IMG/VR virus record: IMGVR_UViG_648276653_000011
Coordinates: 1 to 23,506 of that record
DNA from: a virus
Taxonomy: Duplodnaviria; Heunggongvirae; Uroviricota; Caudoviricetes
Direction: 5' to 3' (one strand)
DNA: 23,506 nucleotides
Part shown: positions 11,839 through 17,220 of the stretch, in pieces
Layout of the letters: each line of letters begins with the position of its first letter
Numbering within the stretch: position 1 is the first letter of the stretch
The notes under the pieces: model-generated
The model's input: the letters and a program-made list of their open reading frames with translations, nothing else
Told to the model about the DNA's origin: nothing
The model's database searches: none
Made by a program: the position numbers and the translations under genes

Positions 11839-12438
11839 TTATGCATTAAGAAGGGTCAAAAGGCGCTCACGCGCCATTCGTTCATTAACAGCTTTCTTCA
11901 GCGCACCACTCGCCCGCGCTTCCTGCCAGGCTTTCATTGAGCGGACACCGGAGTCTGCGTCCTGATAGGCCGGATATGTCACCGGGCTGACGTCATACAG
12001 ACGAGAAATGCGCGTGATTTCCCGGATAACAATCCCCTCGTCGTCTTCATACCAGCTCTCTCCGTCACGGGCGACACGAAACGCGAACGAGGACTGGTTA
12101 ATGTCACCACGCAACATTGGAGACAGCACCAGGTCACAAATAGTCGGAGTACCCGGTGCAACAATGTCATAACGTAAACCGCGTTCATCCACCGACAATG
12201 ACAATGTGCCGGCAGAACTTCGTCCGAGAATGAAATTAGGATCATGATTAAACAAGCCACGTACATCATCATTCAGTACATCATCAAAAGCCCCCGGCTT
12301 GATGATTTCACGAAATCCCCACAGAGGTTCTGAACGACTGTTAAATACCGAGCCATACCCCAGAATGTGGGTCGGGGCATTATCATATTGTTCCGCCCGC
12401 ACCTCCCCGCTGTAACAGCGCGTTTCACGGTCATTCAT
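11839..12438 (-). CDS. Prohead protease (HK97 gp4 family)
   Basis: 199-aa ORF MNDRETRCYSGEVRAEQYDNAPTHILGYGSVFNSRSEPLWGFREIIKPGAFDDVL...; between portal and capsid; 8-nt overlap with the portal gene. Confidence 0.8.
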   Translation of the reverse strand: MNDRETRCYSGEVRAEQYDNAPTHILGYGSVFNSRSEPLWGFREIIKPGAFDDVLNDDVRGLFNHDPNFILGRSSAGTLSLSVDERGLRYDIVAPGTPTICDLVLSPMLRGDINQSSFAFRVARDGESWYEDDEGIVIREITRISRLYDVSPVTYPAYQDADSGVRSMKAWQEARASGALKKAVNERMARERLLTLLNA

Positions 12439-15562: not shown

Positions 15563-16044
15563 CAGTCTCTCGCTTTTAAAAGCTCCGCCAGCGGATCAAC
15601 ATCATCCGGTCCGGCGGTATTTACTTTCGCCCGGCTTGCCGGTGACATACCAAATTCTGCAAGCATCGCCCGGATCCGCTTCCAGGCATCCGCTTTCATC
15701 GCAGCAGCCGGGTGTGCCTTAATCAGCACATCACCGTTCTGCGTTTCCGTGCGGTAGGTATACCCCTCAACATCGAGTGTTTCGCAGTGATGCCGGTATT
15801 CGGTGTAGGCTTCCACCAGTAACTCGAGTGCACGCGCATCAAGCTGAGAAATGATCCCTTCCGCATTCAGTTCTTCCGCCATTCGCCTGAACCAGTACTT
15901 CCCCTGCGACCCTAAATGTTGCGGAATTTTAGGGAGACATTTTTCATCCTTTTTAGCGGTTTTTTTGGAGTCTTTAACTGGCCGCTTTGAGGGGTTACCT
16001 CGTATCAAATGCAGGCGTGGCGGGGTTTTCGGGGGTCCAGACAT
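15562..16044 (-). CDS. Terminase small subunit, P27 family
   Basis: 160-aa ORF MSGPPKTPPRLHLIRGNPSKRPVKDS... resembles the conserved P27-family N-terminus (..PKP..L...GNPGKRP..); immediately upstream of TerL. Confidence 0.75.
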   Translation of the reverse strand: MSGPPKTPPRLHLIRGNPSKRPVKDSKKTAKKDEKCLPKIPQHLGSQGKYWFRRMAEELNAEGIISQLDARALELLVEAYTEYRHHCETLDVEGYTYRTETQNGDVLIKAHPAAAMKADAWKRIRAMLAEFGMSPASRAKVNTAGPDDVDPLAELLKARD

Positions 16045-16191
16045 AATCGGTTTTACCTATCAATCATTTAATCACATTCCAAAAAAAAGTTTTCGAACCT
16101 GCGGCGATGCGAGGAAAGGTCAGGCGGCGGTACTGAACAGCCAGGGTTGCAGAGATTTGACCCGCCCCTCCCCTGCAGATGGGAGCTGTTA
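16045..16191. other. Candidate cos / packaging-initiation region in the HNH-TerS intergenic spacer
   Basis: 147-bp non-coding spacer between HNH and TerS with GC-rich inverted-repeat-like elements (gacccgcccctcccctgcag, aggtcaggcggcgg) and an A8 tract; HK97-type phages place cos between the HNH gene and TerS. Confidence 0.3.
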
Positions 16192-16542
16192 TCAATTGAT
16201 GCGTTCGCGCGCTGTTTTTGCTTTATGACAGGGCCAGCACAGACTCTGCAGGTTACTGTCTGCATCCGTGCCACCATGAGCTTTCGGAATGATGTGGTCC
16301 ACAGTTCTGGCTTCAACGGCTCTCCCATTGCGCAGGCAGTTCTGACACAGATGATTATCACGCTTCAGTATGCGCGCACGTATGGCATCCCATTTCGAGC
16401 CATAGCCACGCTGGTGGCGGCTCAGTCCGCGTTGATGCTGTACCCATCCTTCGCCACGATGTTTATCGCAGTAACCAGAACTGTCTGTGGTTGTACCTGC
16501 ACATCCACGCTTACGGCAGGCGCGTGGGATTAGTGCTGGCAT
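16192..16542 (-). CDS. HNH endonuclease (terminase-associated)
   Basis: 116-aa ORF with HNH motif ...DHIIPKAHGGTDADSNLQSLCWPCH... and upstream Cys pair CQNC; AAGGG RBS; adjacent to TerS. Confidence 0.85.
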   Translation of the reverse strand: MPALIPRACRKRGCAGTTTDSSGYCDKHRGEGWVQHQRGLSRHQRGYGSKWDAIRARILKRDNHLCQNCLRNGRAVEARTVDHIIPKAHGGTDADSNLQSLCWPCHKAKTARERIN

Positions 16543-16680
16543 GTTTCGCCCTTATATAAATCAAAGGTGACCTGCATTGAGTATCTCCATGGAATAGATT
16601 TGCTGCTGATATGAGACAGATCAATAGACTTCATGAGCCAACGGGTGTAGATATTACTTTTTACTTCAGAGGGTTAACTC

Positions 16681-17220
16681 ATGGATATTAAAGATAAAAT
16701 CAATACCATTTTGTTATGTGACATTGCCATCCACCTAGGTATCGAAACTGATATTGATCCACAGCTTGTTAAATATGCTGTGTCATCTGGTAATGATTGG
16801 GTTATCAAGGCCGAATATTCACATTTGGATGTTGACGAACCAAGTAAAGAAGATCGTGATTTTGTTACTGCTGTCTTGAATATGTATCGCGGACTTTCCA
16901 ATGCTTTCAGGAAACTTAGTGATGACGAGCAAAAAGAATTAGTCCGTGACCATCATCTAAAAATACATGATGGGGCAATTCAGCTCCCAGGTTTCGACGG
17001 TAATAATGAATGCGATTACTTCAGTATCATTGAGGCATATCAGAAAATTGATCGCTTCCCCGAACAGAAACAGCCCATTGCCAATACTCATTCACGTACA
17101 GAACATCTCTATAACGCAATGCTTGATGAGTTTAAGAAAATTGACGCTGTAAATCGAAGCTGGGATTTATCGAAGGAAGAACTGGCATCCATTCTTTCCA
17201 CAGCTCCACGCAGTTTCTAA
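16681..17220 (+). CDS. Plus-strand moron gene, 179 aa; tentatively YfbU/UPF0304-like; function unknown
   Basis: ORF MDIKDKINTILLCDIAIHLGIETDIDPQLVKYAVSSGNDWVIKAEYSHLDVDEPSKEDRDF...; visibly AT-rich versus flanking late genes; AGAGGG RBS 8 nt upstream; strand opposite to the late operon; hairpin immediately downstream. Family call is from memory only. Confidence 0.6.
   Translation: MDIKDKINTILLCDIAIHLGIETDIDPQLVKYAVSSGNDWVIKAEYSHLDVDEPSKEDRDFVTAVLNMYRGLSNAFRKLSDDEQKELVRDHHLKIHDGAIQLPGFDGNNECDYFSIIEAYQKIDRFPEQKQPIANTHSRTEHLYNAMLDEFKKIDAVNRSWDLSKEELASILSTAPRSF

Follow-up and report, generated by a model that had tools for sequence, protein, structure and literature searches.

In phage HK97, the genome ends are 10-nt 3' overhangs (PMC11331095, PMC9410871), and cos cleavage depends on the large terminase subunit (TerL) and is stimulated by an HNH protein, a role that is known only for HK97 gp74 (PMC9410871, PMC11331095). 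The minimal site for the small terminase subunit (TerS) of HK97 extends from +15 to +29, in which a G:C pair at position 21 is read by Arg128 and an A-tract is essential (PMC11331095). An HK97-like TerL adjacent to an HNH gene has been described as the signature of the HNH-assisted class of cos phages (PMC3592412, PMC9410871). A related group, comprising phiP27, SfV, SfI, SfII, and ST64B, has cos sites with 10-nt ends of the form N-GCCCGCCCC. The cos of lambda (cosQ–cosN–cosB) is cut to give 12-nt 5' extensions (PMC4669245), in contrast to the 10-nt 3' extensions of the HK97 type, and its cosQ, a highly conserved element of 7 bp, is needed for termination (PMC4669245).

The DNA analysed here (hereafter the window, 23,506 bp in full length) is the IMG/VR record IMGVR_UViG_648276653_000011 itself, and its own ends are therefore uninformative on cos. 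Based on the base-for-base colinearity with the cos sites of HK97, SfI/SfII, phiP27, and Proteus phage vB_PvuS_Pm34 (Pm34; KY420199) (PMC11331095, PMC9410871, PMC3636060), we read the spacer between the HNH and TerS genes of the window, with high confidence for an assignment made from sequence, as the cos site of this E. coli phage, of the HK97 type with HNH-assisted packaging and cohesive ends.

Gene context of the spacer

The genes on the minus strand are arranged in the order of HNH, spacer, TerS, TerL, portal, S78 prohead protease, and HK97-fold capsid (Table 1), and the spacer is thus located upstream of TerS in an HK97-like TerL–portal–protease–capsid module with the HNH gene on its other side, the context of an HK97-type cos. 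The cos of HK97 likewise follows the HNH gene and precedes the TerS gene, whereas the distances differ: the HNH gene ends ~320 nt upstream of cos in HK97 and abuts it in the window, and the TerS ATG is 49 nt from the cut in HK97 and 76 nt from it in the window. The TerL of the window belongs to the same Pfam families as HK97 gp2 (PF03354 and PF20441; identity, 28%; E, 8e-41), and is 82% identical to the TerL of Pm34. In contrast to HK97 gp1, which is without a Pfam match, the TerS of the window is a member of the P27 family (TIGR01558; 106.7 bits against a cut-off of 45.6), with identities of 73% to that of mEp235, 62% to that of Pm34, and 19% to phiP27 L35, and with no BLAST match to HK97 gp1. 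The HNH protein shows identities of 90% to phiP27 L34 and 37% to HK97 gp74. Its N-terminus is rich in Cys (C9-x4-C14 ... C25-x2-H28), a feature that HK97 gp74 does not have and that resembles the additional zinc ribbon found in phage HNH nickases with sequence specificity (PMC3592412). A gene for a YfbU-domain protein (PF03887; E, 6.5e-12) is placed on the plus strand at 16681–17220, with the lysis genes on one side and the HNH gene on the other.

Table 1. Positions in the window of the spacer, its sequence elements, and the flanking genes
Feature	Position	Strand	Remarks
Large terminase (TerL) gene, 585 aa	13805–15562	minus	TerL_ATPase and TerL_nuclease domains
Small terminase (TerS) gene, P27 family, 160 aa	15562–16044	minus	PF05119 (Terminase_4), E 1.6e-25
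Spacer, 147 bp	16045–16191		Between the HNH stop and the TerS ATG
IHF consensus match TATCAATCATTTA	16058–16070	plus	Overlaps the TerS translation-initiation region
T8 (minus), equal to A8 (plus)	16081–16088		+32 to +39 from the predicted cut
TerS-specific block CCTTTCCTCGCATCGCCGCAGGTTCGAAAAC followed by T8	16080–16119	minus	+1 to +40 from the predicted cut; candidate cosB-like TerS site
Predicted cohesive end (cosN core) CGCCGCCTGA, 10-nt 3' overhang	16129–16120	minus	In register with HK97, phiP27, SfI/SfII, and Pm34
Stretch of 22 nt from heptamer to predicted cut site	16132–16153	minus	Variable in sequence, fixed in length
Heptamer TCAAATC	16154–16160	minus	Exactly 22 nt before ACCGCC; cosQ-like in position
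G-rich box GGGGAGGGGCGGG	16161–16173	minus	Conserved cos element on the HNH side
HNH endonuclease gene, 116 aa	16192–16542	minus	PF01844, E 1.9e-16

The first-pass annotation had proposed that the spacer is a probable cos or terminase recognition region of the HK97 type, and its colinearity with the four cos sites named above bears this out. The length of 147 bp and the coordinates given there are exact, and the description of the spacer as non-coding is reasonable, as the ORFs that run across it are all mechanical ones overlapping the flanking genes. The A-tract that had been noticed corresponds to A8 on the plus strand, and the 14-mer that had been quoted, aggtcaggcggcgg, is located at 16117–16130 on the plus strand and holds the whole of the predicted 10-nt end. 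The phrase 'GC-rich repeat-like elements' is right only in part: GC-rich elements are present, namely GGGGAGGGGCGGG, CCGCCGCC at the cut site, and CGCCGC that recurs 23 nt after the cut site, but a repeat search gave only weak chance pairs and no real repeat inside the spacer core, and the repeats were dropped as a feature.

The window is only 23.5 kb in length and several related GenBank records are also short (11 to 21 kb), as might be the case if the spacer were a cos by descent that has fallen out of use in a defective or partial prophage, a reading that is compatible with the site being an HK97-type cos. We consider such disuse unlikely, because every packaging, head, and lysis gene of the window is an intact ORF with a family match over its full length, the core of cos is constrained among relatives, and the spacer, which is found in 850 of the 5426 complete E. 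coli genomes, has an identity of 95% or more in 672 of these records.

Register of the predicted cohesive ends

For the HK97-type cos, the register of the cut was set by four anchors, i.e., the record termini of HK97, the sequenced virion ends of SfI, the annotated cos-site of phiP27 (found by BLAST of the spacer against phage records), and the record termini of Pm34, in an alignment anchored on the AC that precedes the cut (indicated by ↓). The minus strand of the window reads GGGGAGGGGCGGG, TCAAATC, 22 nt, AC, and the 10-mer CGCCGCCTGA, and continues with CCTTTCCTCGCATCGCCGCAGGTTCGAAAACTTTTTTTT. Both ends of the HK97 record are at cos; the right end reads ...GGGGGGGGATCAAATC, 22 nt, GAC, and CGCCGCCAAA, and the left end reads GTTTGAATTTAACGCTAACCCGATTTTTTTAG (GTTTG). 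In the GenBank record of phiP27, the misc_feature 'cos-site' is the 10-nt CGCCCGCCCC between the genes for HNH (L34) and TerS (L35). The SfII record reads GGGGAGGGGCGGGTCAAATC, 22 nt, AC, TGCCCGCCCC, and ATCG, and the 10-mer TGCCCGCCCC is the gap that was found on direct sequencing of the ends of SfI virion DNA (PMC3636060). The linear record of Pm34, which is the closest comparator with defined (record) ends as judged from its TerL and TerS identities, ends with ...GGGGAGGGGCGGGTCAAATC, 22 nt, and GGAC and starts with CGCCCCCTTACCTCTTTTCACATCACCGCAGGTTAGAAAACTTTTTTTGGGG, the boundary being placed exactly at GGAC↓CGCC. The Pm34 10-mer is CGCCCCCTTA in place of that of the window, and just upstream of the Pm34 cos, the place of HNH is taken by a small hypothetical gene and a holin.

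All the anchors and the window have one register in common, consisting of the G-rich box, TCAAATC, 22 nt, and AC↓10 nt↓, with AC↓CGCC(G/C)CCNNN↓ at the cut site. They are aligned without a gap from the G-rich box to the cut, and Pm34 is gap-free on to the T tract. The 22-nt spacing between the heptamer and the cut is kept in eight enterobacterial comparators (HK97, phiP27, SfII, Pm34, mEp235, the Klebsiella and Morganella phages, and Fraca), and the G-rich box is present in nine of the nine comparator phages that could be anchored. Bases 1 to 7 of the 10-mer are conserved, and bases 8 to 10 are variable (TGA, TAA, TAG, TTA, AAA, or TCA), an asymmetry similar to that described for lambda cosN, in which the TerS-distal half of the cut site is conserved and the other half is variable (PMC4669245). 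The first seven of the ten overhang bases (AC↓CGCCGCC...) are identical in HK97 and the window, whereas the last three are AAA in the former and TGA in the latter; the phiP27 group, whose 10-mer is in the register of the window, has CGCCCGCC as the core, in contrast to CGCCGCC in the window. The HK97 10-mer at the right end of its record and the Pm34 10-mer on the TerS side are each at the 3' end of the deposited strand, as would be given by a 3' single-stranded extension. From this comparison, it is likely that the cohesive end is exactly CGCCGCCTGA, the plus strand being predicted to be nicked at 16130/16129 and the minus strand at 16120/16119.

The records of mEp235, Fraca, ST64B, and SfII could not serve as end anchors, as they were opened at the start of TerS or at some other arbitrary position, and none of the near-identical (95–100%) GenBank phage records is linearised at cos. 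A literature search for the 10-mer overhang sequences returned only unrelated papers. In Pantoea phage AH07, the ends, as determined with PAUSE/PhageTerm (PMC8567787), are located in the HNH–TerS spacer just before a CCTTTTT...CCGCGAAA...TTTTTTT block; this phage was rejected as a register anchor for being too divergent and for its different distance between the G-rich box and the cut. Burkholderia phage vB_SR1 shows the same architecture as the window, with GGGGAGGGGGGG TGAAAAA, 23 nt, and AC CGCCCGCTTC, an HNH gene before and a TerS gene after the site, and a right half of the phiP27 type.

The ends of AH07 are off the AC↓N10↓ register, the start of the vB_SR1 record precedes the 10-mer by 2 nt, and two alleles of different length, CCGCCGCCTGA and CCGCCCGCCAA, occur among the close relatives of the window. 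These observations would be accounted for if cos were in the spacer but its cuts were not exactly at the predicted positions, the overhang being different in length or shifted by a few bases; yet the register is common to all four anchors, and the closest anchor, Pm34, shows no insertion or deletion against the window between the G-rich box and the T tract, making a displaced cut quite improbable.

The composite motif TCAAATC-N22-ACCGCCSSC has a single match in the window, which is in the spacer, with 0.07 expected by chance when up to two mismatches are allowed. Scanning IMG/VR with the same motif gave at least 120 loci, which together with the window made up the 121 matches analysed; by our own estimate, about 100 matches are expected by chance in a collection of this size. 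A G-rich box, defined as at least 9 G in the 16 nt immediately upstream and absent from the scan pattern, is found in 89 of the 121 matches listed, and the other 32, many in GC-rich repetitive sequence without a cos context, look like chance matches. The box and the heptamer are at the fixed distance upstream of the cut in the window, and we take this pair as a defining trait of the HK97-type cos, which is a criterion of our own and not an established one.

It may also be asked whether the spacer serves solely for the expression or regulation of the terminase operon, in a phage that packages by the headful (pac) mechanism or is cut elsewhere. The last ~35 nt of the spacer indeed contain the TerS ribosome-binding region (...GATAGGTAAAACCGATTATG), and the motifs there are conserved. 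However, neither a promoter-like nor a terminator-like site was found on scanning 15900–16700, the conserved core is aligned to the mapped genome termini of four phages, and the HK97-like TerL beside an HNH gene is the hallmark of the cos class (PMC3592412, PMC9410871); a purely regulatory function is thus very improbable.

A lambda-type cos with a cosN giving 12-nt 5' overhangs is scarcely credible: a GC-rich run that leads into GACCT (minus strand) and an IHF consensus downstream, as in lambda cosB (PMC4669245), are reminiscent of it, but the spacer contains no match to the lambda 12-mer GGGCGGCGACCT within three mismatches (16 in the whole window against 18.4 expected, which is at the level of chance), the terminase is of the HK97/P27 type (TerS, PF05119/TIGR01558; TerL, similar to HK97 gp2) and not of the Nu1/gpA type of lambda, the HNH gene of the window has no counterpart in lambda (PMC9410871), and the spacer is aligned to HK97-type cos sites instead. 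The loose echo of lambda cosN heard in the first-pass annotation is accordingly not supported, and of the two alignments suggested there, that to HK97 is gap-free from the G-rich box to the cut, whereas the likeness to lambda is at chance.

Left and right halves of the probable cos region

In the HK97-type cos sites compared here, the left half (the G-rich box, the heptamer, 22 nt, and ACCGCC) is common to phages with unrelated TerS clusters, and the sequence to the right of the cut is sorted by the TerS cluster among the matches listed. The cluster of the window, with a P27-family TerS (at least 51 loci, of Escherichia, Klebsiella, Morganella, and Proteus types), has CCTYYYTCRCAYCGCCGCAGGTTMGAAAAC followed by T7–8, with the ATG 74–77 nt from the cut; the cluster of HK97 gp1 (at least 14 loci) has GTTTGATTTTAACGCTAACCCGATTTTTTT and an ATG 49 nt from the cut; and that of phiP27 L35 (at least six loci) has GTCRNTTTTTTATACCCGCGAAAAATGAAATTT. 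The observed sorting of the right half with the TerS type fits the position of the TerS site in HK97 and its essential A-tract (PMC11331095). A run of T is found downstream of the cut in both HK97 and the window, whereas it is placed at +24 to +30 in the former and at +32 to +39 in the latter, and the right halves are otherwise unrelated in sequence; the right half of the phiP27 group belongs to yet another class (GTC..TTTTTTATACCCGCGAAAAATGAAATTT). In the right halves of Klebsiella phage 1 LV-2017, mEp235, and Fraca, a palindrome-like GGGGTCCCCC directly follows the T tract, where the window type has GGAATGTGATT.

Sequence constraint was measured in 68 distinct relatives chosen solely for encoding a 97–99% identical TerS. 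The fraction of variable sites is 0.125 in the +1 to +40 block, 0.373 at the third codon positions of TerS, and 0.906 at those of HNH, and the CATCGCCGCAGGTTCGAAAAC and T tract are therefore more constrained than the adjacent third codon positions. The cut site itself is represented by two alleles, ACCGCCGCCTGA and ACCGCCCGCCAA, in relatives with a 97–99% identical TerS. The T8 tract of the window is part of this constrained block, which is sorted with the TerS cluster, and the TerS family differs from that of HK97 gp1. The region 16080–16119 is a candidate TerS-binding site; as TerS has no BLAST match to HK97 gp1 and the T tract is at +32 to +39 and not at +24 to +30, this assignment is made by analogy and conservation.

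The IHF consensus WATCAANNNNTTR is matched only once in the window, by TATCAATCATTTA, with 0.82 matches expected per 23.5 kb. This sequence, which follows the T tract and precedes the TerS start, is retained by the E. coli-type relatives and lost in mEp235 and the Klebsiella-type relatives. Because of this loss and the overlap with the start of TerS translation, we regard the IHF site only as a lead; it may be a further point of likeness to lambda cos (PMC4669245).

The window is a mosaic with respect to these two halves. Its HNH protein (90% identical in amino acids) and the left cos half (92% identical in nucleotides) are of the phiP27 type, and the right half and TerS are of the mEp235/Klebsiella type, with the joint at or near the cut site (16120–16191 against 16045–16119).

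Homology with HK97 suggests how the site may be cut in this phage, with what polarity and length of the overhangs, and which protein may read each element. On the minus strand, the site would consist of three parts: a shared upstream element, GGGGAGGGGCGGG and TCAAATC (16173–16154), followed by 22 nt that are free in sequence; the cut site, AC↓CGCCGCCTGA↓; and a terminase-specific part, CATCGCCGCAGGTTCGAAAAC and T8 (16109–16081), 11 to 39 nt past the cut. The P27-family TerS would bind to the right-hand block (+11 to +39), and TerL, helped by the HNH protein, would nick the two strands 10 nt apart (PMC9410871, PMC11331095), leaving 10-nt 3' overhangs (CGCCGCCTGA, minus strand; TCAGGCGGCG, plus strand). 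Packaging would then proceed from 16119 toward the lower coordinates, through TerS, TerL, and the head genes, and the next cos would be cut when its G-box/heptamer side arrives last.

Such a three-part logic, with a conserved upstream element of 7 bp and a TerS-specific site on the right-hand side, is shared with lambda cos (PMC4669245). By position and conservation, and by analogy only, the G-rich box and heptamer are a candidate counterpart of lambda cosQ. The box and TCAAATC precede the cut by 22 nt in phages that represent at least three unrelated TerS types, and occur in a similar form in the Burkholderia phage; no description of the pair as a cos sub-site was found in the literature searched, in which the original HK97 cos papers were left out. 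We tentatively propose, while leaning slightly to the side of doubt, that the G-rich box and TCAAATC make up a cos sub-site of their own, which is recognised by the conserved pair of TerL and HNH and not by TerS and may act as the counterpart of lambda cosQ in terminating packaging or placing the second nick, and that the cut site is a preferred point of exchange between phages for a left half linked to HNH and a right half linked to TerS.

Annotation and use of the site

No feature is annotated under the spacer match in the eight E. coli (RefSeq) records listed, nor is a cos feature annotated at the spacer in the closest phage records. The GenBank relative ON470586.1 carries a 'hypothetical protein' across the cos spacer (12039–12185), which is probably a spurious call. 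An HK97-type cos is a well-known kind of site, and the novelty here is the unannotated site of this lineage, with no new biological principle. The anchored comparison provides a simple rule for HK97-type cos sites, i.e., the G-rich box, the heptamer, 22 nt, AC↓N10↓, and a TerS-specific block. With the end predicted at 16129–16120, the prophage genomes of this group could be linearised and compared correctly, and cos-plasmid or transduction tools would become possible for these phages.
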